From Trichoplax sp. H2 (Eukaryota): a stretch of DNA of 64,000 nt. Shown piece after piece: positions 55,654 to 63,500 of the stretch (position 1 is its first letter; every line of letters starts with the position of its first letter). The translations under genes and the position numbers were made by a program. Under the pieces are notes generated by a model that did not search any database, had not been told where the DNA came from, and saw only the letters and a list, made by a program, of their open reading frames with translations. The stretch covers positions 124,001 through 188,000 of the forward strand of contig NOWV01000011.1 of the NCBI GenBank assembly GCA_003344405.1. Reading direction: 5' to 3'.

Positions 55654-56773
55654 CTCTTGTAGTTAATTTTAAAAAGTCATTTATAGAAAGTAATTACATT
55701 TTAAAAATAATTAATTTCATTAGAGCCAGTTACTTTTGTCTTCGTTTATATGTTGCTAAGAGTAAGTATCTATAAATGTATCATTGCATACGACTTGCAT
55801 AAATGCTAATATTGATACTGTATCATTTTCAATCTGACTGACCACACATTGGCTGAATAGCACCTAATAGCTCTACTAGCATTACATTGAGAGTAAATAG
55901 ATAATTTGCAAATAAAAGTGCAGTATCTGTTTCTTTAAGTTCTTCGATCTTGCGAAAGAGCTACTGAGGATCAGATAAGCTAAATCGGTAGGAAAAATGT
56001 TGAAGTTCCATTTCGCAAAATCTTTTCACTCTTTTGCCAATATCCGTATCCGTATTCATTCTCACAAATCAATTAATAAATTTTTAACCTAGATGTATTA
56101 CAAATTAATTCGTAAGTTGTACACACTCTTAGACCTGGTTTTTGCAAGTTTCTACAGAACAGTCATGACAGTAAAATGACGGAGTTTATTTATGATCTCA
56201 AAATCTTTAACTTTTTCTCACTATCAAATTTTATTATTAAATTCTTCTGACCAATAACTGCTATAAAAGTCTTCATACATGTGTTACTCTAATATGCTTT
56301 TCAATACGTAGAAATATAATCGGTATAATTTAATGCCTACACAAAATGTACATTTCTATTACAGAAAGTAATAATTCTTTCTATGTACACATATAGAGGA
56401 TTTAGTGTAGTAGCCCACAGGTAGACTGATGATGGCATTCTACTTTATAAGAATACTGGCGCTACTATTATGGAGGCTTTGGGGAATATGCAAAGAAAGC
56501 TTACCTTGTTCTATTTATTAGCGTTATAATGATATTGATATTTAATTCAATTAAACTTAACTTAAACTTTTGTACAAAGTTTGCAAATAAGTTTATTGAA
56601 AGCAAATTTAGTTTTCAAATCAATTCAGTTAATAAGAATCAATCATTTCCCGTTTTATCGTCCTAGTATACTGGTATATCCCTTACTAAAAGGAGATATT
56701 TCAAAATATACAACCAAATAGAGATTATATCAGTGATAATTTTAGTTTTTTAATTACAGCTAGTATAATAACA

Positions 56774-59700
56774 TTAATACAAGTTGATGGTAGGTTGCAT
56801 AATAGTATCAGTAGTAAAGATTCCTAATTGTGCCATTTCTGTTTTTAACTTCGTCATCATATCACCTGAAAGTTCCTGTAATGGAGAGCGAGGAATACCA
56901 ATGTCTAATCCCCGCAAGGTCAACATTGCTTTATGAACAGTAACCTCATTACCTGCCAACGTAATAAATCAAAATTGATAATCAAATATCATTCCTCTAA
57001 TATTTCTGGATATATTCTTAAAATATATTTGATAATTGAGGTGTTGTACGCACTGTATGAACCTAATTTTCTGTGTACAGCGTTAACAATGCCCTATTAA
57101 TAAGAGAAATTGAAATTGTCAGGGCAAAAATCTAATAAAACAAAGTAATCTGCCAACTCCAAAGTAGTAACTCACCGACGACATGAAATACCTTACTTGA
57201 TTAATTATATACTAAAAAGACTTTGATAAATTAGAATAGCATATCTTACTTGCAGCCGTCGAGCTTCGTGTATATTACCAAGTTTAAAGCAATCAATGAT
57301 ACCATTGTATAATTTTCCTAAATAACCATATACGCTAAAATAATTTATCGACAATACAAAAAAAGCAATTAAAATTTTACGATCATTTAAAACGACATAT
57401 GAAATTTCACGCCTTAATAAAATAATTTTAATCTGTAATATTTACTGGCTTTGAAAGATCGTACACCCGACCGCAAGACCTCCTAAAAATTGCTAAAACA
57501 AAGAGTACTCGTAAGATTGTAATTTATTTGCAAATTAAAAAAATGAAACTTAAATGTACTACGAATCTTAAAGTATATTTGAGGCTTAATATTACTTAAG
57601 AAACTTCAGTTGTGTACCTCTTCTCTCCCCATGATCATGAAATAATTTTTCGAATGAACACTCGAGGTTTTACATAGGCCGTAGTCACACAAATTATAAC
57701 CATTGTATTGCGTACCACAGAACGTTGGAACATCAAATGCAATACAGTTCAAAATTTCTTCAAGATTTAGAACAGAAACTACAAATATTTGTTAGTGGTT
57801 GCTCGTAACAGTACGTACTATGCCATAAACTAAAGGTTAAATCAATTGAATACAAAAAATATTTCTCTATAACACATACATGGTTCTGTACTGGATGTAA
57901 TAATAGTTTCTTCAGAGTGATTATATAAGAGAGGTATATTAGGAGCATCGCGAGAAATATTAGACAAGTAATTTGTTAAGGTTGCTAAAGAAAACAATGA
58001 AAAAGAAAGTAAACTTTAGTACCAATGCGATAGTGACACAGGAAAGGATTTCATGCTAACTAGTGATTGTCACTTGGAGATTTTTTAATGCCCAAGCTCC
58101 CTAAGTATCGGTAGTAACTTAAACATAGAATCAAAATTCATCTGCGATATATCTTACCTATTCTAGTTTTATATCCATAACTTGGACAAGTACAACTAAT
58201 AGCTGAAACACCAACGGATTGTGCAAAGCGTGCCTAACAAAAGTATCAGGAATAAAAAACACCATAGCGTAAGTTAAATTAATAAAATCTTTCTACCACT
58301 TTTACTCGTATAGAACGCATGCGTTAAAAATAAAAAAAGAATCGAGTGACTACCAGTTCAGTTGCTGCGTTGAGACAATCGCAACTAACGTTACAGATGA
58401 TTCCCTGAAGTCTACATAAGCAAGTTTTATTATAATAAATTCAATTACCAATAATACAATTATTGCAAATGTAAGTTTAATTGTACGAAATTTACAGTAA
58501 ACATACTTTCCCTGAGATGCTCTAGCCCATTCTTGTACTATGGCTTTCCTTTCGTCGATCGTTAATGATTTATATTCACCAGCATCACTACATACTGTTG
58601 GTTGGTTAGCAATTAGGAGTAACACCCATATTAATCAATATTAACAGAAATAAGTGCGATAAAGATAGATGAAGTAGAGCTTTAGCTTTCATAATATTAA
58701 ACTTACTGTGACAAATCGTAATACCATCGCTGAGTAACAAATTAATATATTGTGGAATTAAGGTTAAATTGAGTTCTCTGCTCGTATAAATATTTTTATT
58801 AGTTATAATAAATGTTAATGTTGTATTGTTGAAATTAAATGATGAGATTAATCTTAGTGATTTAGACTATAGGAATAATTTAAGAGCAACTTAAGGACCA
58901 CCTTACCTATTAGCTATAGTGAACATGACATCACCATATTGTATTCAAAAGAATGTAGGTAATAAATGAGCTAATAGAGTAAACTAACCCGTTACGATGA
59001 AAAGGAGTCAATACGTCAGCTATTAAACCTTCTACCATAAATTGTTTAGGTGTCGTAATCTAGATTTTAATAACAATATCGAATGGTGCAAAATTAATTG
59101 ATTAATATTTTTTCTAAATCTTTAGCAGAAACTAAGGCGAAAATTTTGATTGAAATAGTTGAGATGTATTGCTAATTGTACCATAATTATAATTACTGTA
59201 GTTATGAAAATTATCTAATGTTACTATGGAAAAAGATAGATGATATCTATAATTAATAATACTACAAAAAAGTTATGCAGCACAACATGCTGAATGGAGG
59301 TATTTTTCGTATAACTTACAGGTGATACTTTCATGCCGTCATTTAATTCACCTTGGATGACAGGTCGAAATACTTTACTGGTTAAACGTTTGACACCTGA
59401 TGAAGAAGCTCTTGATCGATTTTGACTAGCATTCGTTTTCTTAGCTCCAGTAATGGTAATAGTAGTAGTAGCCTTGCTGGTGGAATCATTCTGATCATTT
59501 TGCAATTTCCTCACCAATAGCTTTTCATAAGGTTTTCTAGTAATACAGTATATGCATATATTCTGAAATCTCTTAGCGATCGTAAAAATTATTTGCAAAT
59601 TAATTTTATTGTAGCACCTCCACATCGCCTAACTTTTGTATTATACTGTACGAATTGCAATCACAATGATGATTACTATGATTGTGTTACCTAATCATTT

Positions 59701-60539
59701 TAAAGCTTTAGCTGGCTAGTAACTGTTAGCAAAATGAGTAATAATTACTGCAGTAGGTACTAATTAATCGAAGCAATTGTAAAGTAATACAGTAGTTGGT
59801 AGAAGAGTGTAGCAGGCATTTGTAATGTATTCCTTGACATTCGACGAACTTGTTGAGCAGATGAGGACAGTAGCATATGATTTATAAGCCCATAGTACTG
59901 ACAGTATTATAGGGTAAGGATATCTATTATTGTTAAAGGTACACACTGGAAGCTGATGATTGCCATATTTTGTTATGCAGATACTGTGTTAGAAACATGT
60001 AGACTATGACGTCAAGTGTAAACACCATTTTAAACCTTGCGTGTATGACGTTAGGCAATAAATATGATATGACATCAAAAGATGGTACAGCAAGATTCCT
60101 AATGCGATCAACTTGTATAGGAATTTATCGTCTTATCGTTGATGATTGACTGTTAATACAAAGATTTTTGTAACTATTTGAAGTTTTGATACTAGAAAGT
60201 GACATCTTTGTCAAGAAACTGAGCAGCACTGTAAGAGTAGTAAGATAAAAAAATGGATCATCCATATACGGTAGACGTCTACATGCTAATACCATTGATC
60301 GTTCTTATCGGTAGAATAACATTTTTGTACAGTAATCTCGTTTACCTGGTGCTATCAGTGATTGGGCCAGGTTTCTCACCACATTTGATCAGCTCTGCTT
60401 TGAGCTCAGCGTTGCTTAATTCAGTAAGACTTTTACGTTCACCATTGATAACGTCAAACATAAGTGTGTTGATATCTACTGTAGCTTCCTTCCGTTTAGT
60501 CGTTGACTTTCTACTTCGTTTTAATGGTGGTGTAGCCAT
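56774..60539 (-). CDS. LEM-domain protein spliced in frame to a degenerate N-acetylneuraminate lyase (NPL/DHDPS-fold) domain
   Basis: Exon 60539-60346 plus exon 59536-59320 give LEM LTELSNAELKAELIKCGEKPGPITDSTRKPYEKLL. A phase-0 intron leads to exon 59059-58989 (VEGLIADVLTPFHRNG), then NPL-like exons (GEYKSLTIDERK, ARFAQSVGVSAI, VPTFCGTQYNG, MGREE|QFLGGLAVG, KAMLTLRGLDIGIPRSPL). Confidence 0.75.
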
Positions 60540-63500
60540 TGCCAAACTTTGAACGAGTCAGTCAGTATACAGTTCAATACACTTCAAATATGTAGACTAG
60601 TTACCGTTCGAAAGTACGGTAGGCTCTTTTTCGGCTTTCTTTGACTTGCTAGAGCTGTTGTTATGAAATGTAAGATAGTTACAGAGGACTTCTTAATGCC
60701 GGGAATACTATTGTAACAACAGTGGCTATTTTTTTCAGCCTTTCCTTGAGTTGTTCCTGTTGACAAAGTCAGTGATTTGATACTGAATCACACTGTAATC
60801 TTAGCTTGGCAGATTCTACAGTGATCCAGTCAGCACGACTATGTTGGTGAAATCTCTCCTTCTTAGGACACGGATTGGCGTAGAACTACTGTACGTATTC
60901 ATTTTTAAGCATTAGGGTCAAAGGACAGATAAACGCATACAGTTTTAATTATCAACTGAATTAGTTGTTTAGAAGAACGTCTAGTCTTGTTTTATGTTAA
61001 GTATGTTAGCTAAGCCAGTAAATTTCATGGCATAATTTTACGTTTTTATCACTGAAATTCTTCACTTACCGCACCATCAAGTCCGCTGGAAAAATTGATT
61101 CAATGGCTGTCAATTTACCAATTATAATGTATTTAAATGATGCTTCACGTACAGTATGACGTGAAGCGTTTCAATTGTTTTTGTGTCAAACGTACTGTAG
61201 CTCTAGTCAAACAACACAACAACCGATCGATGTTCACACTGAGTACAGTACACTGAGTACAGTACAGAATTGTACTGTAGAGCATGAACTCCTATAAAGG
61301 ATCTACAGTACAGTACTGTACTGTACTGTACTGTACCGTACTGTACATACTGTACACTTCGCAACGATTTGCAAGTACATTTGTACAGTACAGTTCACAT
61401 CAACTTGACACATCAGTTAACTCGCTGTAATTGATTAATTTATTATGATAAAGTAAAATAAAATGAAGAGGATATAAAAATTAATAATGACCGTCATAAT
61501 ATGCTATTTTCTTCTTCATTTGATAATTATAATTATCACTAGCCAGCCTTAGATAACTCCATATTGAAGTAGTGCGTCAGAAACAGTGATTTCCAGCTGT
61601 AGCGTACGCACACTCGTACGGCAGTTTACAGTATACTGCAAACACTAAGGTTGCATTGCATTGTACAAAGCACAACGTGGTGCTCCACTAAAGCAGCATG
61701 GTTCAATAGTTCAATCTATAAACTCCAAAGGTTGATTAAACATCGACAGTAAACTTGGCTGCATATGGTGGTTGGGTTGTCAATTTCATCATGTCTATAA
61801 AATGTCTACAGTACAGTATATTCATTGAGTTAACCACACGAACTTTTATCGCACGCTCAAGTAACGAGTGGATAAACAGCAGTACAATTAAACATTATAT
61901 TATCAACAACGCTGCGTACAGTATGGACGTACATGAGCAGAATTGGGTTCAGCATGGAGATAAGAATAGGTTATGGCGGCATGCTACTGACCAGAAATTA
62001 GAAATCCTTAGTTTCTCACGTTTACAGTAGTATAGGAGACTGCAAAAATGATCTTTGGTGACATTTGGGCGTAGCTCATGACCTCAGAATTTTTAAGATC
62101 CAAACAGCGAAACAGAATTGAAGTGAGATCATGTTTTTGTTTATAAGTTAAATTTTTGAACCCAATACTCTAAAGTCGATAGCGTTGTGTATGGTTATCA
62201 GAGTCTAATGCGCCCGTAAGCCATGTCATGTTTAAATTTTTTTAAATTTGTATTTCATTTCGTTTACTTCATCTATGGCCGTTGAATTCCTTCTAAAGGG
62301 GTTACGGAGCTTATATCTTTAGCTGTTCAACATTCAGTTGCGCTAATGCATTACCACTGGGGGTTCAAGATACGGCCTTGACCTATGGCACTTTGCACAC
62401 GTTGCATTGTTGTGCCAAGTAGTGTACACTGTACAGCACGTAATAAGTAATCCAATTATTGAGATCTAGTACAATATAAACTAAAGATATAGCGTAAATA
62501 TATTATGAACAAGTATCTAGAAACTAGCTATATTGTATAGCCTATATATCGTACATAACTCTTATACGTGATTAGTAACGTCAACAGATTATCTGAATAA
62601 ACCAATGTTGTCCGTTGTGTCCAATTAGTGTGTGGATTACTAAATCATATTTACGGTATACCTTGCAAAGTGTTTATAGTATTTTTATTCTACCTTATAA
62701 AAGATAGCAACATAAAAATAATAACAATAATAATAATAATAATGCTATATTTTTTGTATTTTACCGAAGGATAACTTGGCATAATATAAGAGGTCAAGAT
62801 CTAAATTGTATTTTTATTTCAATGTGTAGATGCAACTACTTCGGTGTATGGAATGTACTTCCATGGATTATGGAGCTATATATGTATACTTGTATAACGT
62901 ATAATAAGACTTATTTGCTTACAGTTTTAAAAATCTGAAAATATGCAAACTTGCAGTTCTTTGATATATCTAAATCGAATAAACCAATGTTTACAACTTT
63001 ATCGCAAGCGCTTATCAAATTTTGTTTATACGTTTTATTACTCTTTTTTTTGGACGATAAAGTGTTACTGCATGCTACGTGAGTGAATTTTAGATTTTAA
63101 ATATACTATGCTTCTAATATTTTCTTTGTACGAAAATGTTTTTACTTCTTGACCTTAAACTTTTAAGTTAACACTACTATACAGTAAATAACTAAATATT
63201 TTAGGCATTTAATCTAGATTGATAGTAAACAAGAATGAAAGACTTGTGAATCATTGTCACTATATATATAATACTCGTATATATCGTATGCATACATTCT
63301 TAAATTATTATTATAATTACATATTATATGTTTGTAAGTCTGTATTGCTTTTCAACATTGTTTCGAAGAGTTTTAGGTCGAAGTCGTAAGGGATCGGGTA
63401 TACAGTACACTATACAGCTGCTGTATCTTCAATACTATACAAAAACAAAAACGGCGATCAACGAGTGATTTAAACCATATACGCATATTTTTATATGGCA

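Follow-up and report, generated by a model that had tools for sequence, protein, structure and literature searches.

Locus, transcript and gene model

The 64-kb window analysed here, i.e. the whole stretch of DNA from Trichoplax sp. H2 (G+C content 32.6%, with a single 20-N run remote from the gene), carries the Trichoplax locus TRIADDRAFT_55200, a minus-strand gene of 13 exons at 60539..56774. Spliced together, exons 1-13 form a single open frame from the ATG at 60539-60537 to the TAA at 56776-56774, with GT..AG at all borders. In the encoded protein, a basic N-terminus is followed by a LEM domain, then by a disordered linker rich in S, T and K, and finally by an NPL/DHDPS barrel. The initial annotation of this DNA, made from the sequence alone, had proposed such a fusion, with an intron of phase 2 at 60345-59537 and one of phase 0 at 59319-59060. 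Both introns are exact (GT..AG; the first interrupts the LEM motif), and every coordinate of that annotation holds.

The gene model was compared with RNA by aligning contigs of four public runs (X4, X6, X7 and X8) from four studies over positions 56300-61000. X7 is RNA-Seq on record; the type of X6 and X8 was guessed, yet both contain spliced contigs. In three of the four runs (X7, X6 and X8; three studies) 12 of the 12 introns were spliced out, with one contig per joint, and the joints showed CT..AC ends on the plus strand, which is GT..AG on the gene strand. The decisive claim had been that the LEM part and the barrel are spliced together between 59320 and 59059, and this joint (skipping 260 letters, GT..AG) was indeed present in X7, X6 and X8. 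The shorter side measured 71 letters each time, and the contig depths of 62.9, 80.9 and 68.2 were similar to those at the flanking joints. X6 record 10 is a single contig of 1,871 nt whose listed pieces reach from 60889 in the 5' untranslated region (UTR) to 56652 in the 3'UTR; X8 record 24 (832 nt) consists of 5'UTR, exon 1, exon 2 and 71 further letters, which equals the length of exon 3. X4 yielded unspliced contigs only and zero joints; it may be DNA or pre-mRNA and was counted neither way.

The 349-nt leader at 60888-60540 contains no ATG, compared with a mean of 5.9 in shuffled sequences, and none of 1000 shuffles was ATG-free. Hence the ATG at 60539 is the first AUG on its exon; an in-frame stop lies upstream of it at 60560-60558. 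One gene and one mRNA encode the full LEM-NPL fusion.

According to the RNA, the donor of exon 12 lies after 57054 and not at 57063, so the product has 463 amino acids. Two public models of the protein exist, P0001 (TRIADDRAFT_55200, Trichoplax adhaerens, 336 amino acids) and P0002 ('N-acetylneuraminate lyase', Trichoplax sp. H2, 466 amino acids). The exon 1 peptide is 100% identical to both, and both carry LEM and DHDPS, but neither equals the RNA isoform: P0001 is devoid of part of exon 4 and of exons 9-12, and in P0002 exon 3 is replaced by intronic sequence (exon 2 joined to an extended exon 4) and the donor at 57063 is used. The exon 2 to extended exon 4 junction of P0002 was not listed as a joint in any of the four runs and was rejected. 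A tblastn search of the 64-kb window with the spliced protein gave no paralogue below E 4 outside the gene. The coordinates of all parts are given in Table 1.

Table 1. Parts of the LEM-NPL gene, in window positions, with the evidence for each
Feature	Position	Strand	Evidence
5'UTR on first coding exon	60540..60888	-	349 nt; contigs of three runs reach 60889
Exon 1: start codon, basic N-terminus (residues 6-17, 60524-60489), LEM start	60346..60539	-	joint 60346->59536 in X7, X6, X8
LEM domain, residues 38-73, split by intron 1	59512..60428	-	Pfam PF03020, 1h9f match, predicted helices
Exon 2: LEM end and S/T/K-rich linker, residues 65-137	59320..59536	-	splice joints, composition, pLDDT
Exon 3: barrel strand 1; contains Met145 (59038)	58989..59059	-	joint 59320->59059; alignment to N-terminal strand of homologues
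Exon 4	58707..58777	-	joints 58989->58777, 58707->58594
Exon 5: SDAGE (58589-58575) at family G-T/S-T-G-E site	58507..58594	-	alignment with 149 homologues
Exon 6	58354..58411	-	RNA joints
Exon 7	58158..58233	-	RNA joints
Exon 8: N280 (57922-57920) at catalytic Tyr column	57880..57984	-	149 homologues; alignments to 6arh, 6h4e, 5afd
Exon 9: Q317 (57710-57708) at Schiff-base Lys column	57618..57778	-	149 homologues; human NAL has K
Exon 10	57446..57492	-	RNA joints
Exon 11	57250..57334	-	RNA joints
Exon 12	57054..57093	-	RNA joint 56950->57052, cut +2
Exon 13, coding part, stop TAA 56776-56774	56774..56952	-	reading frame and RNA joints
3'UTR	56583..56773	-	AATAAA at 56597; contig ends 56652 (X6), 56658 (X8), 56583 (X7)

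Some further observations concern the transcript and its borders. Contigs of three runs (records 10, 19 and 24) end at 60889, adjoining an AG (60890-60889), which makes another non-coding exon upstream likely. On the minus strand, the sequence GCG|GTAAGT at 61070/61069 resembles a strong donor and would fit such an exon; if the exon is real, an ATG at 61078 would start a short upstream open reading frame. X7 record 19 lists a joint '60889 -> 61000, opposite strands' (66 letters), which may reflect a contig of both strands or an effect of the end of the aligned stretch at 61000. Further upstream of the gene, 61228-61397 contains short repeats of the GTACA/GTACT type with many imperfect inverted repeats (14 pairs listed). 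Within the gene, X8 record 23 (270 nt, depth 18.7; 58749-59018) contains exon 3 sequence, the unspliced intron 3 and exon 4 sequence; hence some RNA retaining intron 3, or pre-mRNA, exists. The odd exon of P0002 falls within this intron. At 58180 all four runs have G and the window has A (AGT>AGC on the gene strand, synonymous, Ser251); the A of the window may reflect strain variation or an error of the assembly. Downstream, X6 record 9 (2,009 nt) covers 56300-56591 on the same strand and starts a few bases from the AATAAA at 56597, and thus the next downstream gene is very close.

LEM domain, linker and a barrel without its catalytic residues

Proteins are tethered to chromatin when their LEM domain binds BAF, and it is mainly such LEM proteins that connect BAF-coated chromatin to the nuclear envelope. 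According to PMC5630835, the BAF-LEM link is likely restricted to Metazoa. The LEM domain of the Trichoplax protein (residues 38-73) is complete, as had been proposed: it matches Pfam PF03020 over profile positions 2-37 of 40 with 48.7 bits in P0001 and 47.9 bits in P0002 (cut-off 24; E 5.3e-13). It is close to the solved LEM domains of LAP2 (phmmer; 1h9f at E 1.2e-6, 1gjj at E 1.4e-6), with which it has the core G-x-PGPI...TR-x-YEK in common. AlphaFold2 predicts the two-helix LEM fold, with helices at 43-52 and 65-82 and values of 81-95 in the predicted local distance difference test (pLDDT) for this block. Seven of the first 20 residues of the protein are K or R; this basic N-terminus resembles a nuclear localisation signal (NLS) and would serve as one. 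The linker of 58 residues (S 9, T 8, K 6) is mostly predicted to be disordered, with pLDDT below 50 at residues 82-92, 94-113 and 132-164 of P0002. No transmembrane-like window was found in the 463-residue product, where the best 19-residue Kyte-Doolittle mean is 1.24. This agrees with the initial annotation, which had seen no transmembrane segment.

The Pfam scan which that annotation had suggested finds both domains above their cut-offs; DHDPS (PF00701) reaches 66.9 bits against 22.1, over profile positions 16-287 of 289 (on P0002). Barrel strand 1 is matched by exon 3, which P0002 lacks. The closest solved relative of the barrel is human NAL (6arh; HMMER, E 1.4e-31). In the AlphaFold2 model of P0002, built with 87 aligned sequences, the mean pLDDT is 80.2 and the barrel blocks are mostly above 90. 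With this model, Foldseek gave human NAL 6arh as the top match (E 1e-21, TM-score 0.91-0.92 normalised to the target, root mean square deviation 2.0-2.3), followed by bacterial NALs. Thus the predicted structure is a full NPL-type (beta/alpha)8 fold, and the barrel had rightly been called full-length. When residues 166-466 of P0002 were folded as two copies, scores of 0.49, 0.45 and 0.42 were obtained, and one unrelated control scored higher (0.56), which makes these scores uninformative on oligomerisation.

The active site was examined in an alignment of the 463-residue protein with P0003-P0151, the 149 best representatives. The catalytic role of the columns discussed here is established for the NAL/DHDPS family, the Schiff-base lysine and the tyrosine being Lys165 and Tyr137 of E. 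coli NanA; among the PDB entries matched by Foldseek, 4bwl is titled as a 'Y137A mutant', and the words 'catalytic lysine mutant' also occur in the titles. In the column of the Schiff-base lysine, Trichoplax has Q317, whereas 145 of the 149 homologues and human NAL have K. The catalytic tyrosine before the H/N-I-P turn, present in 146 of 149, is N280. The carboxylate-binding G-T/S-T-G-E motif reads S-D-A-G-E, although the changed columns are occupied by G in 144, by T or S in 141 and by T in 114 of the 149. Likewise the G-S-T-Y-N motif has become S-H-V-Y-G (changed columns G 139, S 107, T 112 and N 125 of 149). The same substitutions appear when the protein is aligned pairwise by HMMER to the NALs of human (6arh) and of two bacteria (6h4e, 5afd).

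As judged from these columns, the Trichoplax barrel is catalytically dead and would be unable to carry out class-I aldolase chemistry. The earlier expression 'recycled enzyme fold' is therefore apt, since the catalytic Lys, the Tyr and the GTTGE motif have all been replaced. Yet the gene is maintained: the frame is intact over 13 exons, and every splice site is canonical and used. Five other rows of the alignment also deviate at the K or Y column (P0032, P0080, P0089, P0120, which has a gap, and P0143). In P0032, P0080, P0089 and P0143 the Schiff-base lysine is replaced by T, I, M and I, respectively, and two of them are also without the Tyr; dead NPL-like barrels may thus have arisen more than once.

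The same fusion in sponges

When 1.84 billion representatives were scanned in full with HMMER, 1,541 matches at E<=1e-3 were obtained, of which the best 150 were examined. Among these 150, three matched from the LEM domain through the barrel: P0001 from Trichoplax, P0003 (a cluster from Ephydatia, 421 amino acids) and P0005 (Sycon, 475 amino acids). The two sponge LEM-NPL proteins were the best full-length matches among all representatives (E 4e-42 and 4e-36). P0005 is XP_065192705.1 of Sycon ciliatum; a EukProt row, taken to be derived from a transcriptome, differs from it by one residue. The cluster P0003 includes KAL5499648.1 of Ephydatia muelleri (P0152, 427 amino acids). P0003 itself appears to be an assembled transcript, because a contig of 1,530 bases fits an uninterrupted frame of 421 codons. 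Pfam finds LEM and DHDPS in the proteins of both sponges, with 38.5 bits for the LEM domain of Sycon.

Both sponge fusions retain the GTTGE motif, the Tyr and the Schiff-base Lys, and hence their barrels are probably active lyases. The motif M..P.KR at the N-terminus does not vary among the four aligned sequences; overall, the sponge proteins are 27-32% identical to that of Trichoplax. The fusion thus occurs in sponges of two classes, with the same order of parts and an intact active site, and, by its distribution, the LEM-NPL architecture is probably old. The sponge fragment P0155 (Sycon, 58 amino acids, from a genomic contig) ends with '...DATR' at the very point of the LEM domain where Trichoplax exon 1 ends ('...DSTR', donor AG|GTAA, R-stop); this is a hint that an intron may interrupt the LEM motif at the same place in both species.

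When a hidden Markov model of the LEM domain, built from the fusion proteins, was run with filters off against 174 proteins, only rows from Trichoplax, Ephydatia and Sycon fell below E 0.7. No LEM domain was detected in the other N-terminally extended NPLs of this set (tardigrade, Acanthaster, Tubulanus and several more). The named barrel-only neighbours are animal NPLs of about 300-310 amino acids, from the cnidarians Nematostella and Sanderia, echinoderms, a hemichordate, a tunicate, a nemertean and tardigrades. Word-index searches with P0002 and with the four-sequence alignment returned Trichoplax and Sycon rows only; they missed even P0003 and are uninformative on distribution. Other additions at the N-terminus of NPL barrels were a ZSWIM3_N domain in P0091 and the start of a GlcNAc 2-epimerase domain in P0144, so the NPL barrel seems prone to fusions at this end.

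The initial annotation knew of no LEM-aldolase architecture. This claim fails because automated pipelines have already annotated the fusion in at least four species (T. adhaerens, Trichoplax sp. H2, Sycon ciliatum and Ephydatia muelleri). Novelty was also to be given up if the architecture proved to be widely annotated, which is true only in part: public annotation exists, but just these four species turned up, and the sponge entries come from pipelines ('N-acetylneuraminate lyase-like' or 'hypothetical protein'). We found no paper on a LEM-NPL fusion in a search that left the supplementary tables of placozoan and sponge atlases uncovered, and these may list the gene. A survey with the LEM domain of emerin as the query recovered MAN1, LAP2, LEMD1 and ANKLE1/2, and the available part of it does not mention LEM-NPL (PMC5630835). 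What is new is the RNA-verified model of 463 amino acids, which corrects both public Trichoplax models, and the recognition of the Trichoplax barrel as a putative pseudoenzyme, the same fusion being retained in sponges with an intact active site.

Interpretation and comparison with known systems

The most likely interpretation, to which we assign a probability of about 0.6, is that the gene encodes a soluble nuclear LEM protein with a barrel that is now a non-catalytic module and that descended from an ancestral LEM-tethered lyase. In an early animal, the LEM domain would have tethered an active sialic-acid or 2-keto-acid lyase to BAF-coated chromatin or to the nuclear interior. The placozoan line would then have lost catalysis and retained the barrel as a structural or binding, possibly oligomerising, module. 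In the present protein of 463 amino acids (NLS-like N-terminus, canonical LEM domain, disordered linker of about 60-80 residues and NPL triosephosphate isomerase (TIM) barrel), the basic N-terminus would direct nuclear import, and the LEM domain would bind BAF and thereby tether the protein to chromatin. DHDPS-family barrels are usually tetramers (a homotetramer being a dimer of dimers), and therefore the fusion protein would be multivalent. The product would be a nucleoplasmic LEM protein with a layout comparable to that of LAP2alpha.

Several points weigh against this interpretation. Nuclear import, BAF binding, oligomerisation, a single origin and the direction of change are all steps that we infer. 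The single origin was addressed with a barrel-only tree of 60 rows, i.e. the RNA-supported model, which also represents P0001 and P0002, and P0003-P0061 of the 150 listed. The backbone of this tree is poorly resolved, with 27 of 57 inner branches open, and in the free tree the three fusions do not form one clade, though no starred branch forces them apart. Because of both, independent fusions are possible. When the three fusion barrels were constrained to one clade, the log-likelihood was 0.86 above that of the free tree (p value of the approximately unbiased test 0.51); hence a single origin is allowed by the tree and not rejected. The end branch of Trichoplax measures 1.63 compared with a median of 0.74, the second longest of the 60 rows, which fits a change of constraint but also makes the placement unsafe. 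In Ephydatia the LEM domain reaches 21.2 and 20.4 bits, under the Pfam cut-off of 24. The structure was modelled on P0002, where 28 residues (138-165) are intron-derived and exon 3 is missing, so that the model is slightly wrong at the start of the barrel. An extra NPL-only mRNA starting from Met145 may exist, contigs being blind to transcript starts, and a second, catalytic NPL of Trichoplax may lie outside the 64-kb window. Finally, the coding differences between the runs, seven in number (three synonymous and one conservative, L174M, in the barrel; three non-synonymous in the N-terminal part), are far too few for a selection test.

Alternatively, the barrel might not be inert. It could bind a sialic-acid-like or keto-acid ligand, or catalyse a reaction without a Schiff base, and the protein could act as a metabolite sensor linking a small molecule to chromatin, a variant which the initial annotation had also considered. 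The high confidence of the predicted barrel is in line with this, as are the many positions still conserved within the family, E191, G315 and the G-x-(D/E)-E motif among them, and the activation of mammalian sialic acid in the nucleus by CMAS, described in PMC13214540. However, the motif for the carboxylate of the substrate is now S-D-A-G-E, with an acidic residue introduced, GSTYN is changed to SHVYG, and three separate active-site elements were lost together, which would be the usual pattern of a pseudoenzyme. We regard this alternative as unlikely; the metabolite-sensing variant in particular looks less likely because the carboxylate-binding GTTGE motif, too, appears degenerate.

It is improbable, too, that the barrel is a decaying relic, i.e. 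that only the LEM domain and linker matter and the downstream exons are functionless passengers. The missing catalytic residues and the long end branch would be expected of a relic, but the 326 barrel codons extend over 11 exons without a stop or frameshift, with all splice sites canonical and all of them used. Moreover, the pLDDT of the barrel mostly exceeds 90, and three of its four differences between runs are synonymous, albeit at very few sites.

A further possibility, very improbable in our view, is that the gene makes two products, the fusion and, through retention of intron 2, a protein of 168 amino acids. This protein would carry a hydrophobic tail behind the NLS-like N-terminus, LEM domain and linker, an emerin-like tail-anchored layout. 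Read-through of the donor at 59320 would add 31 codons (59319-59224), and a 19-residue window that adjoins the stop at 59224 has a Kyte-Doolittle mean of 2.47. However, A/T-rich introns often translate into strings rich in I, L, F and V, so the tail may have arisen by chance. Neither a joint nor a contig for this form was listed, and the depth at 59126-59282 was 0 in X7, X6 and X8, a weak argument since contigs drop rare forms.

The remaining explanation, two neighbouring genes (a short LEM gene with a transcript ending near 59224 and an NPL-like gene from the Met at 59038) of which the fusion is a prediction or assembly artefact, and which the initial annotation had named as the outcome that would speak against its proposal, is close to refuted: Met145 does lie where barrel-only NPLs start and P0001 and P0002 do disagree at the junction, but the junction was found in contigs of three studies at a depth like that of its neighbours, single contigs span the 5'UTR through exon 3 or to the 3'UTR, the leader is ATG-free with an in-frame stop, and the architecture recurs in two sponges (in one case also in a transcriptome-derived set).

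The soluble LEM protein with a non-catalytic barrel can be placed in a broader, more tentative scenario. LEM-NPL could be an ancestral animal gene that predates the split of sponges and placozoans and that placed a lyase on BAF-coated chromatin. The nuclear enzyme would have stayed active in sponges, the LEM exons would have been lost in cnidarians and bilaterians, and Trichoplax would have dropped catalysis but kept a multivalent chromatin-binding scaffold. In mammals, CMAS activates sialic acid in the nucleus, which Neu5Ac (N-acetylneuraminic acid) reaches 'via unsolved mechanisms' (PMC13214540, in the part available). The ancestral nuclear lyase would have acted in the same compartment as the CMAS step; this is speculation, yet it offers a possible link to an unexplained nuclear step of sialic-acid metabolism (CMAS; PMC13214540). 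Were the scenario true, LEM-NPL would constitute an eighth, previously uncounted family of LEM proteins, and it would show how, in nature, an enzyme became a pseudoenzyme while its chromatin-tethering architecture stayed fixed. Irrespective of the scenario, the LEM-lyase fusion common to sponges and placozoans represents an unstudied soluble LEM member with the fold of a metabolic enzyme. No new principle is involved, as a fusion of LEM with an enzyme (ANKLE1) and a soluble LEM protein (LAP2alpha) are already known.

Among known LEM proteins, emerin and LAP2beta have an N-terminal LEM domain followed by a low-complexity region, as in Trichoplax. In contrast to these tail-anchored proteins, the spliced Trichoplax product has no transmembrane segment, and a hydrophobic tail occurs only in the unsupported read-through of intron 2; the 463-residue product thus falls outside the inner-nuclear-membrane class (emerin, LAP2beta, MAN1, LEM2). 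More similar in layout is LAP2alpha, which combines LEM with a large unrelated C-terminal domain in the place of the membrane anchor. LAP2alpha is nucleoplasmic and oligomerises through its C-terminus, and to our knowledge it is confined to mammals. Its C-terminal domain has a different fold than the Trichoplax barrel. LAP2 also has a LEM-like domain at the N-terminus (PMC5630835, in the part available), and none was seen in the Trichoplax protein.

A precedent for a non-membrane LEM protein with an enzyme domain is ANKLE1/LEM-3, in which LEM is combined with a GIY-YIG nuclease. Here, the LEM domain is not N-terminal. The enzyme differs from that of LEM-NPL, being active and acting on DNA, and ankyrin repeats and another domain order further distinguish ANKLE1 from the Trichoplax protein. 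ANKLE1 shuttles by means of NLS and nuclear export signals, as stated in the available part of PMC4888674.

The barrel itself is homologous to the animal NPLs (human 6arh and those of cnidarians, echinoderms, the hemichordate, the tunicate and tardigrades). These have neither LEM nor linker, whereas the Trichoplax barrel is without their catalytic Lys, Tyr and GTTGE. The substrate of human NPL is free Neu5Ac that has been released into the cytoplasm (PMC13214540). The closest counterparts are the sponge LEM-NPL proteins of Sycon and Ephydatia, which consist of the same M..P.KR motif, LEM domain, low-complexity linker and full NPL barrel but, unlike Trichoplax, keep GTTGE, Tyr and Lys. By this, the two lineages form a natural pair for studying the role of a LEM-tethered barrel, which is probably active in sponges and, by its residues, dead in Trichoplax.

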